In this document: piece by piece, positions 777 through 10,673 of the stretch
Layout: every line of letters starts with the position of its first letter
How positions within the stretch are numbered: position 1 is the first letter of the stretch
UHGV virus genome: UHGV-0176277
DNA length: 11,027 bases
Direction: 5' to 3' (one strand)
From: a virus
Program-made: the position numbers and the translations under genes
Notes under the pieces: generated by a model
What the model was told of the DNA's origin: nothing
The model's database searches: none
What the model saw: only the letters and a program-made list of their open reading frames with translations

Positions 777-2213
777 TCAGAATCCTCCTTTCTTCTTGGA
801 CTGCGGTTCCTCGCGTTCACGTCGGCGCATTTCAGCAGACTGTTGGTCTGTGTCATAAATAGCGCCATTTGCCTGAATGCAATACACCGTACCGGTATTG
901 CCATGACGATTGAGACGAAGGATTAGTTCGGTTTCACCAGGTGGAACACTGTCACCAAAAGCGCCTTCACGATGGATCCCAACCCAATAATCGCAATCCT
1001 GTTCAATCTGCCCTGTATCTCGTGAGTCACTTGGTAATGGGCGTTTATTGGTTCGGCTTTCCAGTGCGCGGTTAAGCTGCGTCAGAAGCACAACAACGCA
1101 ATCAAGCTCTTTGGCAAGGTTCTTCAGTCCTTTGGTGATCATGCCGTAAGCAAGGTCGTTGCGATCGGCCTTCTCAGCGGTCATTAGTGTCAGGTAATCG
1201 ACCAGAATCATGCCAACACATCCTTTTTCTCGCTTGATTCGACGGCTTTCGCTGACGATTTGAGCCAGAGATAATCCCGGCGTGTCGTCGATGTAAAGCA
1301 GGTCGATTTCACTCAAGCGATTGGCTGTTTCGATCGCCCTGTTGAAGTCACCATCGTAATCACCCTGATAGCCGTCATCAGCGTCATTTGTCGCCGGAAG
1401 GTAAAAAATATTCGGGTTAACACCAGACTTCTGCCCTACCAGTTTTTCCAGTATCTGGTCACCTGGCATTTCAAGGCTGAACATAAGAGCGGGCTTTTTC
1501 TCATGCACTGCGCAGTTGATTGCCATCTGGCTGTATAGCGTCGTTTTCCCCATCTTAGGGCGAGCACCAATGACAAACAGAGAGCCTTTCACCAGACCTT
1601 TCGGTGACAGCATCCTGTCCAGCGATGGGATCCCTGTGCTCATTCCTCGTTGTTCGCCTGATGGGTCAAATCGCTTCTCAAGGTCGCTAACCCAGTCTTC
1701 CATGACCTCGCCAAATGAGCGAAGGCCGCGACGCGATCCGGTTTTTGCATGGTCTGTCAGTTGCGTGAAAATCGCCTGAATAGCTTCGTACTTCTGCGTT
1801 GCAGTCATTCCGTTGCGGGAATAGAGCAATTCCGTCGCTTCAGTCATGCGGTTGATGGCGTAGCGTTCCATTGCGGTTTCGCGAACCTGCATTGCATAGG
1901 CAACGATGTTTGCGGCGCTCGGCGTGTTCTTTGCGATCTCAGAGATATAAGCAAAACCGCCAACAGACGCCGTTAACGATTTACGCTCCAGTTCATCGAA
2001 AAGCGTCAGGCCATCTACTGGCTTTTGCTCCCGGTGCATTCTGGTTATTTCTTCGAAAAGGATTTTGTGTGGTCGGCTGTAAAATGAATCAGGCTTCAGC
2101 ATCGCCAGAACTTTCTGGACGCGCTCACTGCTGTCATCATCCAGAAGCAATCCACCAATCACCGCCTGCTCTGCCTCGATGCTATGTGGCGGCGCATAAA
2201 AATTATCGGTCAT
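777..2213 (-). CDS. Replicative DNA helicase, DnaB family (phage P22 gp12-like)
   Basis: N-terminus MTDNFYAPPHSIEAEQAVIGGLLLD matches the DnaB N-terminal signature; Walker A GARPKMGKTT; start ATG at 2213 with GAGGGTGA SD, overlapping the upstream O-like gene end (2203). The track's longer ORF (to 2267) has no support for the extra 18 codons. Confidence 0.9.
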   Translation of the reverse strand: MTDNFYAPPHSIEAEQAVIGGLLLDDDSSERVQKVLAMLKPDSFYSRPHKILFEEITRMHREQKPVDGLTLFDELERKSLTASVGGFAYISEIAKNTPSAANIVAYAMQVRETAMERYAINRMTEATELLYSRNGMTATQKYEAIQAIFTQLTDHAKTGSRRGLRSFGEVMEDWVSDLEKRFDPSGEQRGMSTGIPSLDRMLSPKGLVKGSLFVIGARPKMGKTTLYSQMAINCAVHEKKPALMFSLEMPGDQILEKLVGQKSGVNPNIFYLPATNDADDGYQGDYDGDFNRAIETANRLSEIDLLYIDDTPGLSLAQIVSESRRIKREKGCVGMILVDYLTLMTAEKADRNDLAYGMITKGLKNLAKELDCVVVLLTQLNRALESRTNKRPLPSDSRDTGQIEQDCDYWVGIHREGAFGDSVPPGETELILRLNRHGNTGTVYCIQANGAIYDTDQQSAEMRRREREEPQSKKKGGF

Positions 2214-3093
2214 CGTGTTCACCCTCACGAACTTTAAGGTAGGTATTGTCGTTAAGCAGGAAATCAAATCCCTTTTTGTGCCAGACGGTTCCGCGTTGAT
2301 GGTTTGGGCGTTCTTCGAACATCCATCGGCAATTTTCGCCTACGTAGCTCAAATAATTTCTCCAGTCCTGCATCGTGAAACCATGCCCGTCAAGCTGGCG
2401 GGTTATCACTCCGGCTTTGCGCCAGAACGTTCGGATCTGGTTTTTACGCTTGTCATTCAGTGCGCGGATTCTTGGCGCTTCAGGAAGGATTTCGTGGTAA
2501 GCATCGACAACATCCTGACAGCTAACGGAAGGTTTTTTCTTGTCAGACTTTTTGTCTGCTGTGGCACTCTCTAATACGTCAGTATTAGAGATATTATTTA
2601 TATTATTGTTTATGGACAACCGTTGGACAACCGTTGGACAATCTCCGCTGAGAGCCGCGCCATCACTGGTGTTTGCGTTGGACAACCGTTGGACAACCGT
2701 TGGACAATTTTTTGCCTGAAAATCGTCATATTTAACGATTGTAAACAGGCTAAATTTCTTCCCCATCGAGCAAATATTAAGCATCCCTTTCGACTCAAAA
2801 GTCCGTAATAAGCTCCGAACTTTGTTGTCGGGGATGAATGTTTCTCTGACCAGCGACGGGCGTCCAGTTATCATCTGACCGCGATCAACAGTTATCGGAC
2901 CGATATCCGTATTGACGACAGTAGATTCGTGATTAGCCTTGAGGATTAAGTGAAGCCAAAGATGTACTGCCTGAGAGTCCTTATAGAGCCTGCTGTCCAT
3001 AAACTGGCGGTGTATAGAGACATACCCCATACTGGATGCCTCCTGATGTTGTACAGGGTTATGCCTGTAATCAGCTAACTTAACGACGCCCAT
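2203..3093 (-). CDS. Replication initiation protein (lambda O / P22 gp18 functional analogue) with the origin embedded in its coding sequence
   Basis: Lies between cII and the helicase; coding region contains phased direct repeats that translate as repeated CPTVVQRLS; ATG at 3093 has AGGAG 6 nt upstream; an alternative start at 3030 (MGYVSIH...) has AGGAGG 8 nt upstream, so the true N-terminus is uncertain. Confidence 0.7.
   Translation of the reverse strand: MGVVKLADYRHNPVQHQEASSMGYVSIHRQFMDSRLYKDSQAVHLWLHLILKANHESTVVNTDIGPITVDRGQMITGRPSLVRETFIPDNKVRSLLRTFESKGMLNICSMGKKFSLFTIVKYDDFQAKNCPTVVQRLSNANTSDGAALSGDCPTVVQRLSINNNINNISNTDVLESATADKKSDKKKPSVSCQDVVDAYHEILPEAPRIRALNDKRKNQIRTFWRKAGVITRQLDGHGFTMQDWRNYLSYVGENCRWMFEERPNHQRGTVWHKKGFDFLLNDNTYLKVREGEHDDR
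2614..2707. repeat. Origin iterons: six copies of an 11-bp direct repeat (GGACAACCGTT) in two triplets, flanked by an AT-rich tract
   Basis: GGACAA begins at 2614, 2625, 2636 and at 2680, 2691, 2702; all six are in 11-bp register with a 44-bp GC-rich spacer; AT-rich 2582-2612 (tattagagatattatttatattattgtttat) lies on the downstream side of the O-like reading frame, as in ori-lambda. Confidence 0.75.
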
Positions 3094-3251: not shown

Positions 3252-3328
3252 GTGGATTGATCCAGTAATGACCTCAGAATTCCATCTGGATTTGTTCAGA
3301 ACGCTCGGTTGCCTCCGGGCGTTTTTTA
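3252..3328 (+). ncRNA. oop: oop-like antisense RNA overlapping the 3-prime end of cII
   Basis: Sequence tgattgatccagtaatgacctcagaattccatctggatttgttcagaacgctcggttgcctccgggcgtttttt closely matches lambda oop RNA as I recall it; ends in a GC hairpin plus T6; CATAAT -10 at 3239-3244; convergent with cII (stop at 3274). Confidence 0.7.
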
Positions 3329-3567
3329 TTGGTGAGAATCGAAGCAACTTGTCGTGCCAATCGAGCCATATCGTCGTCGACGACGCCCCATTCAAGAACA
3401 GCAAGCAGCATTGAGAACTTTGGAATCCAATCCCTCTTCCACCTGCTGATCTGCGACTTATCAACTCCCACAGCTTCCGCTGTCTTCTCAGTTCCAAGCA
3501 TTGCGATTTTGTTAAGCAACGCACTCTCGATTCGTAGAGCCTCGTTGCGTTTGTTTGCACGAACCAT
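3274..3567 (-). CDS. cII: Transcriptional activator CII (97 aa)
   Basis: Translation from the internal ATG at 3567 (MVRANKRNEALRIESALLNKIAMLGTEKTAEAVGVDKSQISRWKRDWIPKFSMLLAVLEWGVVDDDMARLARQVA...ERSEQIQMEF) is essentially lambda CII; SD and leader TAAGGAAATACTTACATATG match lambda. The track's 126-aa ORF is an upstream in-frame extension. Confidence 0.95.
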   Translation of the reverse strand: MVRANKRNEALRIESALLNKIAMLGTEKTAEAVGVDKSQISRWKRDWIPKFSMLLAVLEWGVVDDDMARLARQVASILTNKKRPEATERSEQIQMEF

Positions 3568-3584
3568 ATGTAAGTATTTCCTTA
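3545..3584 (+). promoter_or_regulatory. PRE-like CII-dependent promoter (direction of cI, antisense to cro)
   Basis: TTGC-N6-TTGC CII-binding repeat at 3545-3558 (TTGCGTTTGTTTGC) straddling the cII start, with a weak -10 (AAGTAT) about 3572-3577, as in lambda PRE. Confidence 0.6.
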
Positions 3585-3587
3585 ACA

Positions 3588-3618
3588 AATAAGAAGTTAT
3601 GCGCATCAACTTATGCGC
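3588..3618 (-). terminator. tR1-like terminator hairpin between nutR and cII
   Basis: On the minus strand GCGCAT-AAGTTG-ATGCGC (perfect 6-bp stem) followed by AUAACUUCUUAUUUGUU; lambda tR1 is at the same position and is largely Rho-dependent. Confidence 0.45.
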
Positions 3619-3626
3619 GTTGTATT

Positions 3627-3669
3627 CCCGCATTTCGGCGGGAATGAGGACCATGACTGTTAAAGAGCG
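3627..3669 (-). promoter_or_regulatory. nutR (boxA + boxB) N-utilisation site
   Basis: Minus-strand boxA CGCTCTTTAACA (plus 3658-3669) begins 7 nt after the cro stop; boxB hairpin CCCGC-CGAAAT-GCGGG (plus 3627-3642); the same boxA core and boxB recur at nutL (5299-5338). Confidence 0.75.
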
Positions 3670-3675
3670 GTGTTA

Positions 3676-3870
3676 CTATTTGTTTTTCTTGTTGCTTGGG
3701 AAAGGACGAACTTCCTCTCCAATCACACTGCCATCAGGCTTTACCGTAACCATAATGTTACGACCTGCCAGAATGGCCTTGCTGATAGCGCACTGGATTA
3801 CACCAAAGTCACTGGCTGCTTTAGCCTGTCCATGGATTTTGGCGTAATCGGCAAGTGTCATTCGAATCAT
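3676..3870 (-). CDS. cro: Cro repressor (64 aa)
   Basis: [62 protein letters not shown] aligns along its length with lambda Cro; ATG at 3870 with GGAG 7 nt upstream; divergent from cI. The track's GTG start at 3876 is a short extension. Confidence 0.85.
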
Positions 3871-3892
3871 ATGCACTCTCCGTTATTAACCA

Positions 3893-3976
3893 TGAACAAA
3901 GAATACTACAGGTATTCAAAGCAATCAATACTCAGGGTATTTTTAGTTTAAGTACCTTAGCTATTAGAATTAAGCT
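3893..3976. promoter_or_regulatory. Right operator region: three operators (AATAC-N5-GTATT type) with divergent PR and PRM
   Basis: Palindromes AATACTACAGGTATT (3902-3916), AATACTCAGGGTATT (3927-3941) and a degenerate AGTACCTTAGCTATT (3951-3965), spaced 24-25 bp. PR on minus: -35 TTGATT (plus 3923-3928), 17-bp spacer, -10 TATTCT (plus 3900-3905). PRM on plus: -10 TAGAAT 3965-3970 ending 6 nt before the cI ATG, so cI is leaderless with no SD. Confidence 0.7.
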
Positions 3977-4693
3977 ATGGAAAATAAAAAATCACTGACG
4001 ACAGAACAGCTCGAAGACGCTAAGCGGCTTAAGGCTTTGTATGAGTCAAAAAAGAAAGAATTGGGAATAACCCAATACTCAATCGCTGATGAACTGGGTA
4101 TCACCCAAGGAGCGGTAGGGCATTATCTTAATGGCAGAAACGCGCTAAACGTTGAGGTTGCATCTGGTTTTGCACGGCTGTTGCAAGTCTCAATTGCTGA
4201 TTTTAGCCAGTCAATTGCTGCCAAGGTTGCAGAACAGGCAGAAAGCCTTAAGAGCGATGCCAACGTAAGGTATGCAGGGGAATACAGAGCAGGAAAGAGG
4301 TATCCGGTGTTAAGCAGTATCCAGGCTGGCTCGTGGTGTGAAGCATGCGAACCATACACCATTAAAGACATAGATGTTTGGCTTGAGTCTGACGCGCATA
4401 TTCAAGGTAATGCGTTCTGGCTTAAAGTGGAAGGTGATTCAATGACGGCACCGGTTGGGTTAAGCATTCCAGAGGGGACATTCGTTCTTTTCGATACCGG
4501 AAGGGAGGCGATCAACGGCAGCTTGGTCATAGCAAAACTTTCTGACTCTAACGAAGCAACATTCAAGAAGCTGATAATCGACGGCGGAAATAAATACCTC
4601 AAGGGACTTAATCCTGCATGGCCTCTCGTGCCAATCAATGGAAACTGCAAGATTATAGGCGTTGCAATTGAGACAAAACTAAGGCTGGTTTGA
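3977..4693 (+). CDS. cI: CI repressor (HTH N-terminal domain plus S24/LexA-type autocleaving C-terminal domain)
   Basis: N-terminus ...LTTEQLEDAKRLKALYESKKKELGITQYSIADELGITQGAVGHYLNGRNALN parallels lambda CI; Ala-Gly cleavage site in SIQAGSW; catalytic Ser in EGDSMTAP and Lys in TFKKLI. Confidence 0.95.
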   Translation: MENKKSLTTEQLEDAKRLKALYESKKKELGITQYSIADELGITQGAVGHYLNGRNALNVEVASGFARLLQVSIADFSQSIAAKVAEQAESLKSDANVRYAGEYRAGKRYPVLSSIQAGSWCEACEPYTIKDIDVWLESDAHIQGNAFWLKVEGDSMTAPVGLSIPEGTFVLFDTGREAINGSLVIAKLSDSNEATFKKLIIDGGNKYLKGLNPAWPLVPINGNCKIIGVAIETKLRLV

Positions 4694-4710: not shown

Positions 4711-5079
4711 ATGGTTGGAACCGCTATAGCAAGCTTTTTTGGGATGTTGGCAATCTCGACAATTTACGGCTTAGCGCATGCTTTTATTGCGAAATCTCTA
4801 TCAGAAAAAATAAGCCAGGCTTGGGCGCATAGATCAGCTCGTTTCATGATTCTGGTGATCATAGCAATACAAGGGATATCTGCATTTATCCTCTATGGAT
4901 CAAGCTTATACCTATTGTATCAAGGCGCGACATTTACGCCTTACACCAGTGATTACGGAACTCTATACGATGGTAGTGAAGACATCACTGTGGCTTGGAT
5001 CGTCTTTGGTTTATCTATGGCCGTGTCTGTTGTAGCAGACATCATTAAGGTAATTCTCGTCTTAACCTTCGCTGACTAA
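4711..5079 (+). CDS. Integral membrane protein (122 aa, about three TM helices), unknown function, directly downstream of cI
   Basis: ATG at 4711 with AGGGG SD 5 nt upstream, 17 nt after the cI stop, same strand with no intervening promoter or terminator; hydrophobic segments VGTAIASFFGMLAISTIYGLAHAFIA, FMILVIIAIQGISAFILYGSSLYLLY, ITVAWIVFGLSMAVSVVADIIKVILVLTF. The track's TTG start at 4690 is less likely. Confidence 0.6.
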   Translation: MVGTAIASFFGMLAISTIYGLAHAFIAKSLSEKISQAWAHRSARFMILVIIAIQGISAFILYGSSLYLLYQGATFTPYTSDYGTLYDGSEDITVAWIVFGLSMAVSVVADIIKVILVLTFAD

Positions 5080-5165: not shown

Positions 5166-5260
5166 AATATCCTTTGTATTCATTTGCTTATCATTATTTC
5201 ATCAAAAATAAATACCTTGGGTATTTACATAATAAAATACCTACAGTATTCTTTAGCCAT
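5166..5260 (+). promoter_or_regulatory. Left operator region with PL promoter
   Basis: Operators AATATCCTTTGTATT (5166-5180), AATACCTTGGGTATT (5211-5225), AATACCTACAGTATT (5236-5250) share the OR consensus; PL candidate -35 TTTACA (5224-5229), 17-bp spacer, -10 TATTCT (5247-5252), mirroring the PR architecture. Confidence 0.6.
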
Positions 5261-5339: not shown

Positions 5340-5652
5340 ACCAAAGAGTAGTTGGCTTTGGGGTGACGTGAAGTGCAGCTGCACGACGGCAACCGGAAGA
5401 TAAGCACCCGGCGCGTCACCGCCAAAGTCAATTCCATAGGCGTTATGCAGCCGCCACCATATTCAAGAAAGCTGCACAAGAGGTAGGAGGATTTATGTGA
5501 ATGCATAACTTCAAAACCGAGGTTAATTAAATCTCTCGATCCGAGCATCGACCTATTAGGTGGTGAGATGCTCTTTCTGCCCCTCAATTCGAGGGGCCAG
5601 AAACCACTTTGCAATCACTATCAATTCCAAAGTTGTTTCATCGGAGGTCAAC

Positions 5653-5958
5653 ATGACAGTAGTCATTACATATCTGGCTGACGATAACGCCAGAAATCGC
5701 CGCAGAGCACGCAGACAGGCTCAACGTGAACAGGCAATGCAAGAACAGCGACTGGCGCGAAAAATTGCGCTAAAGCTCTCTGGTTGCGTCAGAGCAGATA
5801 AAGCAGCATCACTCGGAAGCCTTCGCTGCAAGAAGGCAGAAGAAGTCGAGCGTAAACAGAATCGTATTTACTACCGCAAGCCACGCAGTGAAATGGGTGT
5901 GACTTGTGTTGGACGCCAGAAGCAACGCGGAAAATCAATTCCAGCTTATTACGATTGA
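5653..5958 (+). CDS. N: Antitermination protein N (101 aa)
   Basis: Arginine-rich motif NARNRRRARRQAQREQA near the N-terminus; C-terminus VERKQNRIYYRKPRSEMGVTCVGRQKQRGKSIP parallels lambda N; ATG with GGAGG SD 5 nt upstream. The track's ORF from 5560 is an upstream in-frame extension. Confidence 0.85.
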   Translation: MTVVITYLADDNARNRRRARRQAQREQAMQEQRLARKIALKLSGCVRADKAASLGSLRCKKAEEVERKQNRIYYRKPRSEMGVTCVGRQKQRGKSIPAYYD

Positions 5959-5963
5959 GGTTA

Positions 5964-6233
5964 ATGATGAAGTTCAAATTGAACGATGAAGTTAAATGGT
6001 CAAGCTCATCAAACGGTGTAACGAAGGTAAAAATAGGGTTTATCGTCGAGGTGATCCCTCCTGGTGTCAACGTAAAAAAATTCGAACTAGGCCGTCTGCT
6101 AAATGCCCCTGGCCTTCCGAGGAAAGAAGAGAGCTATATAGTTTGTGTAGGTCCAAGACCCGGATCTCGTGCCAAGCCAAAATATTACTGGCCGCGAGTT
6201 AATAACCTGCGTCACTTACACGATGACAAATAG
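5964..6233 (+). CDS. Hypothetical protein (about 89 aa) immediately downstream of N (position of lambda ral)
   Basis: ATG at 5964 and 5967 follow a GAGG SD; translation MMKFKLNDEVKWSSSSNGVTKVKIGFIVEVIPPGVNVKKFELGRLL...; no family recognised by eye. Confidence 0.55.
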   Translation: MMKFKLNDEVKWSSSSNGVTKVKIGFIVEVIPPGVNVKKFELGRLLNAPGLPRKEESYIVCVGPRPGSRAKPKYYWPRVNNLRHLHDDK

Positions 6234-6290
6234 AAGTGAATATCATTGTTTTACTTTTTCGCAGCAAACCACTTATTTGATGACTGATAC

Positions 6291-6533
6291 ATGAGAGTAA
6301 AAACCATGGGCGCAAGCCCATTAAGTGGTCGTATTTTTCAAGGAACATTAAACACTGAAAAAGGAATGTGGGTGGGAAAGAAAGAAGATGTAACCGAACA
6401 GGCAGTTAAGGCAGTAGCTGAACACCTGATGATAAAAGACCAAAAATATGCATACGAAACGAAGGATGGCAAATGGCTGATAATAAGTCATCAACTGGTT
6501 GATAAATTACCAGAAGAGTTTGTTGATGGTTAA
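6291..6533 (+). CDS. Hypothetical protein (75-80 aa), PL operon
   Basis: ORF with possible starts at 6291 (no SD) and 6306 (GAGAG 8 nt upstream, MGASPLSGRIF...); soluble and charged, no recognisable motif. Confidence 0.5.
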   Translation: MRVKTMGASPLSGRIFQGTLNTEKGMWVGKKEDVTEQAVKAVAEHLMIKDQKYAYETKDGKWLIISHQLVDKLPEEFVDG

Positions 6534-6661
6534 ATTTGCTTTGGCATAAACAACAGAATAAACATTGCACTGTGTATTCATTCCAACGAGTGAATACACG
6601 GAGCAATGTCGCTCGTAACTAAACAGGAGCCGACTTGTTCTGATTATTGGAAATCTTCTTT

Positions 6662-6686
6662 GCCCTCCAGTGTGAGGGCTTTTTTA
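6662..6686 (+). terminator. Rho-independent terminator within the PL operon (tL-like), upstream of cIII
   Basis: GCCCTC-CAGTGT-GAGGGC hairpin (6662-6679) followed by TTTTTT (6680-6685). Confidence 0.7.
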
Positions 6687-6751
6687 TATGCATACCAATA
6701 ACGCTTCACGAGAGGCATTTTCGTTATGCAATCAAACAGAAGGAGCATCCT

Positions 6752-6922
6752 ATGCAACAGTTCGCTATTGCAGGGGCGGCATCGGTTCGCCCTTTCAACC
6801 CGATTTTATCGGTACAGCATTCACGAAAAAACATTTTAACCGGAGCAGACTTTAAACAACCAAGAATGAAAAGCTTGCTCGAAAAGCTTTGGGATATTTT
6901 GAAACAACAAGGCCGTCCATGA
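6752..6922 (+). CDS. cIII: CIII-like protein (56 aa; FtsH/HflB protease inhibitor that stabilises CII)
   Basis: MQQFAIAGAA... N-terminus and ...SLLEKLWDILKQQGRP parallel lambda CIII (MQYAIAGW...LRDGWKRLIDILNQPGVP as I recall it); AGGAG SD 6 nt upstream of ATG 6752. Confidence 0.65.
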   Translation: MQQFAIAGAASVRPFNPILSVQHSRKNILTGADFKQPRMKSLLEKLWDILKQQGRP

Positions 6923-7176: not shown

Positions 7177-7884
7177 ATGGATTTGAATAAATTAGATGAG
7201 CCATTCTGCCCTGAAGATATCGAATGGCGAATACAGCAAAGCGGTAAAACACGCGATGGCAAGGTGTGGGCTATGGTGCTGGCTTATGTCACGAACCGGG
7301 CAATCATGAGACGCCTGGACGATGTTTGCGGCAAAGCAGGATGGCGCAATGAATACCGCGATATTCCCAACAACGGAGGCGTTGAATGCGGCATATCAAT
7401 CAGGATTGATTCCGAATGGGTAACCAAATGGGATGCCGCTGAAAACACGCAGGTAGAAGCCGTCAAAGGCGGTCGTTCCGGTGCAATGAAGCGCGCTGCC
7501 GTTCAGTGGGGAATCGGTCGGTATCTGTATAACCTTGAGGAAGGTTTCGCACAAACATCTCTCGATAAAAAGCAGGGATGGCACAGGGCAAAACTCAAGG
7601 ATGGAACAGGATTTTACTGGCTCCCTCCATCGCTGCCGGGATGGGCAATACCAGCATCAGATAACAAACCATCACCAGAAAATACCAACCAGAAATCTCC
7701 ATCGGTTGACTGCGAACAAATCCTGAAAGACTTCAGCGATTATGCGTCAACAGAAACTGACAAGAAAAAACTCATCGAGCGTTATCAGCGTGACTGGCAA
7801 TTAATGGCTGGCAACGAGGAGGCGCAGGCTAAATGCGTTCAGGTAATGAACATCAGAGTTAACGAACTAAAACAGGCGGCATAA
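7177..7884 (+). CDS. Single-strand annealing protein, Rad52/22 superfamily (phage recombinase)
   Basis: Central block GKAGWRNEYRDIP...GGVECGISIRID...GAMKRAAVQWGIGRYLYNL resembles the Rad52-family annealing-domain signature; GAGGTGA SD; immediately followed by ssb. Confidence 0.75.
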   Translation: MDLNKLDEPFCPEDIEWRIQQSGKTRDGKVWAMVLAYVTNRAIMRRLDDVCGKAGWRNEYRDIPNNGGVECGISIRIDSEWVTKWDAAENTQVEAVKGGRSGAMKRAAVQWGIGRYLYNLEEGFAQTSLDKKQGWHRAKLKDGTGFYWLPPSLPGWAIPASDNKPSPENTNQKSPSVDCEQILKDFSDYASTETDKKKLIERYQRDWQLMAGNEEAQAKCVQVMNIRVNELKQAA

Positions 7885-8358
7885 ATGGGAAGTAGAGGCG
7901 TAAATAAGGTGATCATTATTGGTCGCCTTGGGCATGATCCAGAAATCAGATATTCACCATCAGGAACGGCATTTGCAAACCTTACAGTTGCTACGTCAGA
8001 ACAATGGCGTGATAAGCAAACTGGAGAGCAAAAGGAGCAGACGGAGTGGCACCGTGTGGTAATGAGCGGGAAACTGGCAGAAATTGCCAGCGAATATCTG
8101 CGAAAAGGCTCTGAGGTTTATCTTGAAGGCAAATTACGGACAAGAAAATGGCAGGATCAAAGCGGACAGGATAGGTTCACTACCGAAGTCATCGTGGGCG
8201 TTGGTGGAACCATGCAAATGCTTGGTGGCAAGCAAGGAGGCAATGAACAGTCTTCACCTCAGCGAAATAACGGTCAGCAACAAAGACAGCAGCCTCAGCA
8301 GCAGGGAAATCACAGCGAACCACCTATGAACTTCGACGATTCGGATATTCCGTTCTAG
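7885..8358 (+). CDS. ssb: Single-stranded DNA-binding protein (phage-encoded SSB)
   Basis: [59 protein letters not shown]... is near-colinear with E. coli SSB; Gly/Gln-rich linker and acidic tail DDSDIPF. Confidence 0.95.
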
Positions 8359-8367
8359 GAGCTGAAT

Positions 8368-8847
8368 ATGAAAATCTGCTCAAGATGCCATCAACAGAAG
8401 GAAGAAAGGGACTTTCAAATCAGAAGAGCATCCAGAGATGGATTAACTGCCGCTTGCCGTGCTTGCCTGGCTGAATACGACAAAGAACGCGCTGGATTGC
8501 CACATCGAGTATCAGCAAGGAGAGAATATCAATCATCGGAACGCGGCAGAGAACGGTGTAACGCAGCCAAAAAGCGGTTCATTCAGAGCAACCCATGGAA
8601 AAGAAAAGCCCACATCATTGTGGGTAATTTTTTGCGCGACGGTAAGCTAATCCGACCACCACAATGTGAGTGCTGCGGATCAGAATGTAAACCACAGGCG
8701 CACCACTGCGACTACAGTAAACCAACCGATGTGATGTGGCTCTGCAAGTCATGTCATGTCGAGTGGCACAAACATAACAAACCTATCTACCCAGATGAGG
8801 AACCAGTAACTCTCCCCTTCCCTCGTCACGCTATTCACGCAATTTAA
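8368..8847 (+). CDS. Cysteine-rich zinc-binding protein with an HNH-like motif (putative HNH nuclease or zinc-ribbon protein)
   Basis: N-terminal CSRCH...CRAC pair; C-terminal CECCGSEC...AHHCDY...WLCKSCHVEWHKH resembles the CxxC...HH...CxxCH arrangement of HNH nucleases but lacks a clear Asn; AGGAG SD 6 nt upstream. Confidence 0.5.
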   Translation: MKICSRCHQQKEERDFQIRRASRDGLTAACRACLAEYDKERAGLPHRVSARREYQSSERGRERCNAAKKRFIQSNPWKRKAHIIVGNFLRDGKLIRPPQCECCGSECKPQAHHCDYSKPTDVMWLCKSCHVEWHKHNKPIYPDEEPVTLPFPRHAIHAI

Positions 8848-8860
8848 TCAGGAGAAAATC

Positions 8861-9157
8861 ATGCCAGCGCCTCTGTATGGTGCGGATGACCCGCGCCGCT
8901 GTTCCGGCAATTCCGTATCGGAGGTGCTGGATAAATTCAGAAAAAACTACGACCTGATAATGTCTCTACCGCAGGAAACGAAAGAGGAAAAGGAATTTCG
9001 CCACTGTATATGGCTTGCAGAGAAAGAAGAACGCGAGCGAATTTACCAGACATCAATCCGACCATTCCGCAAAGCCACATATACCCACTTCCCTGAATAT
9101 ATCGACCCGCGCCTGCGTAATTACCGCTCACGCTATTGCGCTATCAGTAATGACTGA
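8861..9157 (+). CDS. Hypothetical protein (98 aa)
   Basis: AGGAG SD 6 nt upstream of the ATG; ORF fills the gap between flanking genes; no recognisable motif. Confidence 0.55.
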   Translation: MPAPLYGADDPRRCSGNSVSEVLDKFRKNYDLIMSLPQETKEEKEFRHCIWLAEKEERERIYQTSIRPFRKATYTHFPEYIDPRLRNYRSRYCAISND

Positions 9158-9458: not shown

Positions 9459-9622
9459 GAGGACTTGCATACAATCCCGGCATTCTTCCGGCAGAAATGA
9501 TTATTCGCCAACGCGTAAAGCCAATGCCATCGAGAGAGGAATTACTTAAGAGAAATTCTTTTCCATCAGTGAATGAAAACAAATATCTGAATGCGATGTG
9601 GCGCAAAGGAGGCAGCCAGTGA
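9455..9622 (+). CDS. Small hypothetical protein (55 aa), absent from the supplied ORF track
   Basis: ATG at 9455 overlaps the upstream stop (ATGA) with GGAGAG SD 6 nt upstream; its TGA stop overlaps the next gene's GTG start (GTGA); translation [55 protein letters not shown]. Confidence 0.45.
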
Positions 9623-10263
9623 CTAACCGTTTTTACATGATGTGCTCGCGTGAAACTGTGGGCAATAACGCTTCATTCCATTGCCATAACGGCAATGGTT
9701 ACAGTTCTGATATCGATCGCGCTCATGTTTACACGCTGGAAGAAGCCCAAAAAGCCTGGAATTGTGGGCGAGATATCGATCAGCCTGTTTGCGCTGATAG
9801 CGTGGATGCAATGGCAGTGTGGCACGTTGATTGCCAGTACATCCCTACAGAAAGCCTGATTGAGTCAGATTGCACTGCGTATGTGGCCTACAAAAAAGGT
9901 AGCTGGAACGGCAACGATGTTTACTGGCTTCAACACGGTGGATTGCCAACAGATGACTTCAGTAAAGCGACCATCTTTAGCGTCGCCAACAAAAACGAAC
10001 CAGGAATAGTTTGGTTGCCATTTTCCATTGCTGATGCAGCAAAGCGCAGGACGTTCAATATCAATAACTTTAACCGCAGAACAATGGTTCAGGGCGCAGG
10101 TTTGGTCATGCCTGACTGGTTGAAAGAGCAGAACAGAAGAAAGAAGTCGCGAAGCGGGAAGGTGCGTTGGAATTGTCCGCATTGCGGAAAAATCTCCTGG
10201 CAGTACAGCCCATATGATTTTGAAGGCTGTAGTGATTACAACTGTGAAGGATGGCGAGAATGA
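9619..10263 (+). CDS. Hypothetical protein with C-terminal zinc-ribbon motif (about 214 aa)
   Basis: GTG at 9619 preceded by AGGAGG 6 nt upstream (preferred over the track's 9598); C-terminus [29 protein letters not shown] has CxxC...C..C spacing; several additional conserved-looking Cys/His. Confidence 0.6.
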
Positions 10264-10673
10264 CAATTGACTATCAGGCACTGCGTGATGCGGCAGAAGC
10301 AATAAAAATAGCAGCCACACCACAAAAATTGCTGGCATTTCGTATGAAGGTCACACCTCAGGTTGTGCTGGCACTACTGGATGAACGGGAAAGGAACCAG
10401 CAATACATCAAATCCCGCGACCAGGAGAACGAGGAAATTGCGCTAACGGTAGGGAAGCTGCGCGTTGAGCTTGAAGCAGAAAAACAGCGGGCAAAAGTTC
10501 TATTTATGGAAAATGCTCGGCTTAAGTCAGGCATAGCCGGTCTGATACACCTCGGTATTCGATATGCAGATGTTGAGGTCATGAAAATTGCTGGAGATGC
10601 CCAGCTTTCTACCCCATGCACTGACAGCATCATAAACAGCATTGCAACAGGCATTCGCATCAAAGGAGAGTGA
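10260..10673 (+). CDS. Hypothetical early-region protein, possibly Ead/Ea22-like (137 aa)
   Basis: ATG at 10260 overlaps the upstream stop (ATGA); [19 protein letters not shown]... N-terminus and central heptad-like charged region (coiled coil) resemble prophage Ea22-like proteins as I recall them. Confidence 0.5.
   Translation: MTIDYQALRDAAEAIKIAATPQKLLAFRMKVTPQVVLALLDERERNQQYIKSRDQENEEIALTVGKLRVELEAEKQRAKVLFMENARLKSGIAGLIHLGIRYADVEVMKIAGDAQLSTPCTDSIINSIATGIRIKGE

Follow-up and report, generated by a model that had tools for sequence, protein, structure and literature searches.

What do two small genes encode that lie between the antiterminator gene N and cIII of a lambdoid phage, at the position where lambda carries ral, when would their products be made, and on what might they act? 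We considered these questions for an 11,027-nucleotide stretch of the virus genome UHGV-0176277 (the window), for which a preliminary description had placed two ORFs, here ORF1 and ORF2, in this interval and offered them as candidate anti-restriction, anti-defence or exclusion proteins. According to the open reading frame listing and profile searches, the window covers the immunity and early genes of a lambdoid phage; its leftward (PL) operon runs on the plus strand, and the features are:

777-2267, minus strand: DnaB-like helicase
2203-3093, minus strand: O-like replication protein, with probable iterons inside
near 3274-3654, minus strand: possible cII-like ORF, assigned from position alone
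3676-3876, minus strand: cro-like gene
3977-4693, plus strand: cI
4690/4711-5079, plus strand: 3-TM protein (phrog_6534), 122-129 aa with three hydrophobic segments
5224-5252, plus strand: probable PL promoter (TTTACA-17-TATTCT), from a promoter scan and sequence reading
5568-5599, plus strand: probable nutL, a boxA-like TGCTCTTT followed by a hairpin with a 7-bp stem (GCCCCTC-AATTC-GAGGGGC), from sequence reading
5653-5958, plus strand: antiterminator gene N, 101 aa (phrog_271, E 1.7e-36)
5920-5966, plus strand: left flank of the ORF1 cassette, where identity to the window starts in two loci (L021, L024) whose upstream gene is otherwise unrelated
5967-6233, plus strand: ORF1, 88 aa, pI 10.0, phrog_11941 member; alternative ATG at 5964
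6261-6282, plus strand: 22-nt boundary sequence GCAGCAAACCACTTATTTGATG, from comparison of the window's junctions with those of L001, L002, L009, L010, L016, L017, L018 and L022
6291-6533, plus strand: ORF2, 80 aa, near neutral (pI 6.7), DUF7446 member; alternative ATG at 6306
6540-6690, plus strand: predicted PreS/LPR1 sRNA-tL2a element, about 97% identical to the lambda ral-ea10 intergenic region (alignment A3)
6752-6922, plus strand: cIII, 56 aa (phrog_550, E 1e-22)
downstream of cIII: gene for a 52-aa phrog_2123 protein
7177-7884: Rad52/Erf-type annealase
7885-8358: SSB

Both ORFs and both flanking genes are therefore where the preliminary description had put them, with the ORFs running on the plus strand from 5964 or 5967 to 6233 and from 6291 or 6306 to 6533. 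N also retrieves the Pfam N_peptide model at an E-value of 7.7e-4, which falls under the gathering score; its central part is 91% identical to the N protein of phage 21, and its C-terminal tail is an alternative one. Operator-like palindromes (AATACCnnnnGGTATT) read from the sequence overlap the probable PL and recur at OR (about 3900-3945), and the nutL call follows from the general layout of nut sites. Within the O-like replication gene, 11-bp repeats (TGGACAACCGT) at 2602-2719 form two clusters of three and are probably the iterons of the origin.

ORF1 matches the phrog_11941 profile over its full length (positions 1-87 of 88, E 1.3e-45), and the same profile is matched by distant members of its superfamily. 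Its start is most likely the ATG at 5967, going by a GAGG motif that overlaps the stop codon of N and by the homologues, which begin MKFKLNDEV. A database of 5.8 billion proteins contains 30 relatives at 55-93% identity, from Cronobacter, Pluralibacter, E. coli and other Enterobacterales, and a profile search of 1.84 billion cluster representatives recovers 1788 clusters at E <= 1e-3 and 370 at E <= 1e-10, where the clusters are drawn at 50% identity and 1788 is a lower bound. This superfamily spans several proteobacterial genera, including Enterobacterales, Pseudomonas, Burkholderia and Ideonella, and its proteins are mostly single-domain and of 80-100 aa, with a few containing two or three tandem copies and with no Pfam domain fused in the longer ones. 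The family is characterized by the signature F-x-x-GD-x-V-x-W-x-SQA-x-G...K-x-G-x-V...PR-x-HESY-x-V...AKPK-(Y/L)-YWPR. None of the family members examined scores above a Pfam or NCBIfam threshold; sub-threshold matches to Hva1_TUDOR over the first hairpin are seen in 10 of 53 members, and weak matches to a phage ProQ C-terminal-like domain in two of the 53.

The AlphaFold2 model of ORF1 is confident (pLDDT 85.4) and forms a five-stranded barrel that superposes on known Tudor/SH3-like small beta-barrels, and we confidently predict that ORF1 belongs to this fold. Among the small barrels that the model resembles at the fold level is the type II dihydrofolate reductase R67, an enzyme linked to NADP(H). 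To Hva1_TUDOR/DUF2945 (PF11160; Cryptococcus Hva1, PDB 4p5n) ORF1 is likewise related at the level of the fold only: it has no Pfam match of its own and does not reach the gathering threshold of 24.1 bits, and its family differs in its phage early-operon context and in an invariant basic and aromatic C-terminal motif of its own (PGSRAKPKYYWPR in ORF1, AKPK(Y/L)YWPR in the family). This motif, together with W11, K22, R52 and S56-Y57, suggests that ORF1 may bind nucleic acid, a nucleotide-type ligand or a nucleic-acid enzyme. 

ORF2 is a clear member of Pfam DUF7446 (PF24233; profile positions 2-70 of 70, E 8.5e-29, 99.6 bits against a gathering score of 24.1) and also matches phrog_1578 (E 4e-40). 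All the invariant residues of DUF7446, namely G13, I15, G18-T19, W27, D33-V34 and E44-H45, are present. Its most likely start is 6291, because residues 1-8 are conserved in the family and are modelled as a beta-strand. In the 5.8-billion-protein database 61 relatives were found, from E. coli, Shigella, Salmonella, Klebsiella, Yersinia, Serratia and Aeromonas, and relatives at approximately 50-60% identity occur in 273 phage records, which include virulent Ackermannviridae and have Salmonella, Klebsiella, Escherichia, Dickeya and others as hosts. In the Ackermannviridae genome that we inspected, that of Kuttervirus ECML-4, the DUF7446 gene lies among small hypothetical genes 3' of the major head gene. 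The AlphaFold2 model (pLDDT 91.2) displays a beta3-alpha-beta2 topology for which we obtained no match among solved structures, the family itself being without one, and only uncharacterised viral proteins in BFVD. ORF2 thus combines a confidently modelled fold lacking a solved relative with a distribution common to temperate lambdoid phages and virulent Ackermannviridae.

We conclude that ORF1 and ORF2 are real, conserved protein-coding genes under purifying selection, since family membership, homologues, selection and confident structure models all agree. For each, dozens of homologues at 40-96% identity have undisrupted frames and show long invariant stretches in the alignments, and Nei-Gojobori estimates of dN/dS are 0.04-0.1 for ORF1 where dS is unsaturated and 0.04-0.07 for ORF2 at deeper divergence. 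Both proteins are soluble and without recognisable catalytic motifs; the maximal 19-residue hydropathy (KD19) is 1.16 for ORF1 and 0.17 for ORF2, with no hydrophobic or membrane segment in either. A PC4-like ssDNA-binding fold was rejected, as there was no structural superposition with a meaningful Z, and the sequence profiles A1, A2 and A4 found nothing below an E-value of 0.3 among solved structures. The two ORFs had been described as unrecognisable, which does not hold for ORF2 and is not fully right for ORF1, a member of a large, unnamed Tudor-like family; profile and structure searches place ORF1 in phrog_11941 and in a Tudor-like barrel and ORF2 in DUF7446, with the fold of the latter left without a solved counterpart. 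ORF1 opens up a superfamily of nearly 1800 clusters for which neither Pfam nor NCBIfam has a model and which annotation pipelines often overlook: the gene was left unannotated in L001, the one RefSeq locus inspected in full, and under the ORF1 stretch of several other E. coli matches only N or a "regulator" is annotated. Its DNA is found in 50 of 5426 complete E. coli genomes, and tblastn against 50,697 deposited phage genomes gave no match.

We then examined the surroundings of these genes by mapping reference proteins onto more than 60 related loci; a search of the genome collection with alignment A1 supplied one related locus. As the preliminary description had supposed, this is a variable cargo slot: between N and the PreS element related prophages carry Ral, DUF7685, DUF7446, ORF1 or many other small genes. 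ORF1 begins 8-12 nt past the N stop codon in most of the close, enterobacterial loci, where the adjoining N allele may be as much as 98% or as little as 36% identical to N of the window while ORF1 itself stays 99% identical, and in L024 it sits after a gene that is not N. The 3' neighbour of ORF1 is Ral, DUF7685 or DUF7446 in some loci and, in others, one of ten or more further small genes unrelated to these. DUF7446 genes of other E. coli prophages, in turn, follow N by 10-14 nt or come after Ral, and usually end 10-16 nt before the conserved PreS element. An ORF1-family gene followed by a diverged DUF7446-like gene is found in three other lineages (L007/L008/L047 and L056), and the particular combination seen in the window is absent from the complete E. 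coli genomes and phage records that we searched. From this distribution, including the absence of any ORF1-family gene within 3 kb of the 80 DUF7446 loci in IMG/VR, we conclude that ORF1 and ORF2 are independent cassettes and that their pairing in the window is a rare mosaic.

Neither protein is Ral, in agreement with the impression first recorded by eye: there is no match to PF11058 at E-values up to 1, and tblastn with lambda Ral finds nothing in the window and does find Ral in other related loci. Lambda Ral is comparable in being small, in being expressed early and in having its gene in this slot of the PL operon (N to PreS/tL2a), but shares no sequence similarity with either ORF. Moreover, Ral occurs alongside ORF1 in L001, L004, L005, L024 and L025 and alongside DUF7446 in at least 13 IMG/VR loci, which argues that ORF1 and ORF2 are additions to Ral and not substitutes for it. 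The ral gene beside ORF1 in L001 has an internal stop and is annotated as a pseudogene.

The junctions give a concrete picture of cassette exchange at the 3' end of N. The ORF1 cassette carries its own left flank of 30-50 nt, which encodes an alternative tail for the upstream gene (...KSIPAYYD*) and contains the ribosome-binding motif of ORF1, a GAGG overlapping the stop codon of N. Its right flank ends at 6261-6282 in GCAGCAAACCACTTATTTGA(G/T)G, which corresponds to the final 22 nt of an N gene of the phage 21 type. Other phages have this remnant, reading ...TTTGAGG, ahead of ral, DUF7446 and other cassettes, and there it supplies their GAGG ribosome-binding site. These comparisons indicate that ORF1 entered inside the 3' end of N, and that the end of N thereby displaced has become the junction to the cassette that follows. 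At position 6281 of the window a G-to-T change has turned GAGG into GATG ahead of ORF2, which may weaken translation of the latter. Taken together, the sequences show exchange by recombination at short conserved boundaries, with the N remnant (6261-6282) on one side and the element at 6540-6690 on the other. The lambdoid accessory or "moron" cassettes of HK620 and CUS-3 are similar in that short conserved junctions flank interchangeable genes, the junctions in the window being the N 3'-end remnant and the 5' flank of PreS; the CUS-3 record has a "boundary sequence" feature (bsq5) annotated under its match to the N-to-tL2a stretch of the window. Classical morons carry their own promoter and terminator, whereas the ORF1 and ORF2 cassettes appear to have neither. 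By sequence, each of the two genes thus adds a new member to a known though uncharacterised family, and the accessory slot is also of a kind already known.

At the right boundary of the slot, the ral-ea10 interval of lambda is reported in a 2024 preprint to encode LPR1/PreS, an Hfq-dependent sRNA that has the terminator tL2a as its 3' end and up-regulates the host gene dnaN (bioRxiv 10.1101/2024.10.31.621285). The stretch at 6540-6690 resembles this interval both in sequence and in ending with a GC-rich hairpin and U tract (stem 6662-6679, T run to 6687, from the terminator scan), although here it is a predicted element and lies outside both ORFs. The terminator that had been noted after ORF2 is accordingly genuine as a hairpin with a T run at 6662-6687, and what changes is its status, in that it is the 3' end of the PreS/LPR1 sRNA-tL2a element instead of a stand-alone signal. 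Rfam, which has no model for PreS, detects no family in the whole window. A query of 6280-6700 has some match in 2237 of the 5426 E. coli genomes, mostly in its downstream part only, and is covered to at least 80% in 44. The element forms the right boundary of the slot and the end of the predicted early transcript. A further hairpin with 22-bp arms (6562-6609) lies 5' of the terminator and immediately precedes the expected sRNA; it might be a site of processing.

With respect to expression, no promoter-like or terminator-like site is predicted on the plus strand between 5252 and 6662 by scans that are blind to Rho-dependent termination and weak promoters, making the early expression from PL (5224-5252) envisaged in the preliminary description plausible. 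Because no terminator is predicted before 6662 and the ribosome-binding motif of ORF1 overlaps the N stop codon, ORF1 and ORF2 are probably co-transcribed with N from PL, early in lytic growth, and silent in lysogens. On these grounds we propose that they are two independent, promoterless accessory cassettes in a hypervariable slot that extends from N to PreS/tL2a in the lambdoid PL operon. Synthesis of their products would fall within the first minutes after infection or induction and be absent from the lysogen, and each would most likely act as a small stoichiometric binder of a host component, serving counter-defence or host takeover and not the protection of the lysogen. We put the probability of this reading, early co-transcribed binders of host components, at roughly 0.4. 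It draws on the fact that the slot also houses the known anti-restriction gene ral, and on the relatives of ORF2 in virulent Ackermannviridae, which have no lysogens to protect. Against it, neither protein is similar to characterised anti-defence proteins, and Pfam, NCBIfam and PHROGs give no such annotation; two phage accessory-gene screens have no peptide strings from either protein in their supplements, neither phrog_1578 nor phrog_11941 appears in those of a machine-learning study of anti-defence prediction, and DUF7446, PF24233 and both PHROGs are unmentioned in the searchable literature. The altered ribosome-binding site of ORF2 in the window also speaks against it, and the strict position of ORF1 after N could reflect a link to transcription or RNA biology instead.

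The main alternative, possible if somewhat doubtful, gives both genes roles internal to the phage: ORF1 would be a Tudor/KOW-like factor binding RNA, DNA or RNA polymerase and modulating early transcription, N function or the fate of an mRNA or sRNA, and ORF2 would act in a conserved lytic step shared with Ackermannviridae. The basic character of ORF1 (pI 10), its Tudor/KOW-like fold, the weak ProQ C-terminal-like matches in two of 53 relatives and the occurrence of the family in early-left operons of Pseudomonas prophages are all compatible with such a function, as is its spacing of 8-12 nt after N in most close loci, which would permit translational coupling. Furthermore, slow evolution (dN/dS 0.04-0.1), with strong purifying selection on both genes, and the wide distribution of ORF2 relatives in Ackermannviridae fit a phage-internal role at least as well as an arms race. 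Both genes are, however, rare among lambdoid prophages, and the 50 E. coli genomes with ORF1 DNA stand against 2237 that match 6280-6700, mostly in its downstream part; this rarity implies that ORF1 is dispensable for N function and lambdoid development. ORF1 also pairs with N alleles that are only 36% identical and, in L024, follows a gene other than N. A different proposal, that the genes exclude other phages from the lysogen, was among those put forward in the preliminary description and has the precedent of sieB, which lies in the N-proximal region of lambda and P22, and of rex at a comparable position; prophage accessory genes also often protect the host. It is nonetheless weakened to the point of being improbable. 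With no plus-strand promoter-like site within or just upstream of them, ORF1 and ORF2 should be repressed along with PL in the lysogen; neither has a membrane segment (maximal KD19 1.16 and 0.17) or a Pfam SieB match, which disfavours a SieB-type function; PADLOC gives no defence match apart from a weak similarity to DndE (PDLC02671); and homologues of ORF2 reside in strictly virulent phages. A better candidate for an exclusion or defence protein expressed in the lysogen is the 3-TM protein at 4711-5079, whose gene lies directly 3' of cI and overlaps the cI stop codon, the position at which lambda has rexAB.

Early binders of host factors or of defence components thus fit the data better than lysogen exclusion. 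A more specific reading would have the ORF1 class act as oligomeric sponges or blockers of a conserved nucleotide-type or nucleic-acid immunity target, and DUF7446, separately, as an inhibitor with a new fold, possibly a mimic of part of DndE directed against phosphorothioate-based defence. We regard this as a long shot. For ORF1 it rests on the fold-level likeness to R67 and to Hva1, which has been proposed to interact with NADPH (PMC5008624), and on a distant family member in Burkholderia (L067/L068, 3754-4273) that lies 23 nt 3' of a small gene with a weak Tad2-like (PF11195) match. That the two genes might form a single functional unit is the least probable of the proposals and one that we reject. 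The succession of an ORF1-family gene and a diverged DUF7446-like gene in L007/L008/L047 and L056 would favour a unit, but the distribution largely refutes it: the count of zero in 80 IMG/VR DUF7446 loci, the absence of both genes in the arrangement of the window from every complete E. coli genome and phage record searched, the other downstream neighbours at most ORF1 loci and the recombination boundary between the two ORFs all run counter to it.

Since Ral was found in the N-proximal slot of lambdoid phages, uncharacterised genes in it are rational candidates for early counter-defence or host takeover. If the counter-defence reading is true, two widespread families will have been named; if it is false, the case cautions against equating the "ral position" with "anti-defence". 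Both proteins are small and soluble and hence easily tested, and their value lies in this testability and in the size of the unmodelled ORF1 superfamily. The wider ORF1 family is found in accessory regions of temperate phages, in early-left operons of Pseudomonas prophages, in a nin-like region and in Burkholderia, contexts that fit an accessory status and point to no specific target. An HD_4 gene and an H-NS-like gene also belong to the Burkholderia cluster mentioned above, which is a possible anti-defence neighbourhood. Among the further early-left ORFs 3' of SSB in the window, on the plus strand at 8368-8847, 8861-9157, 9598-10263 and 10251-10673, there is no PADLOC match, and the first of them is rich in cysteine and histidine. 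Occasional copies are damaged, ORF1 being frameshifted in L046 (4004-4266) and ORF2 truncated in L133 (3001-3240). Finally, the range of cargo found in the slot is widened by a prophage of E. coli strain 573 (NZ_CP102853.1, 1453537-1455314), whose match to the N-to-tL2a stretch of the window carries the annotation "Nmad5 family putative nucleotide modification protein".
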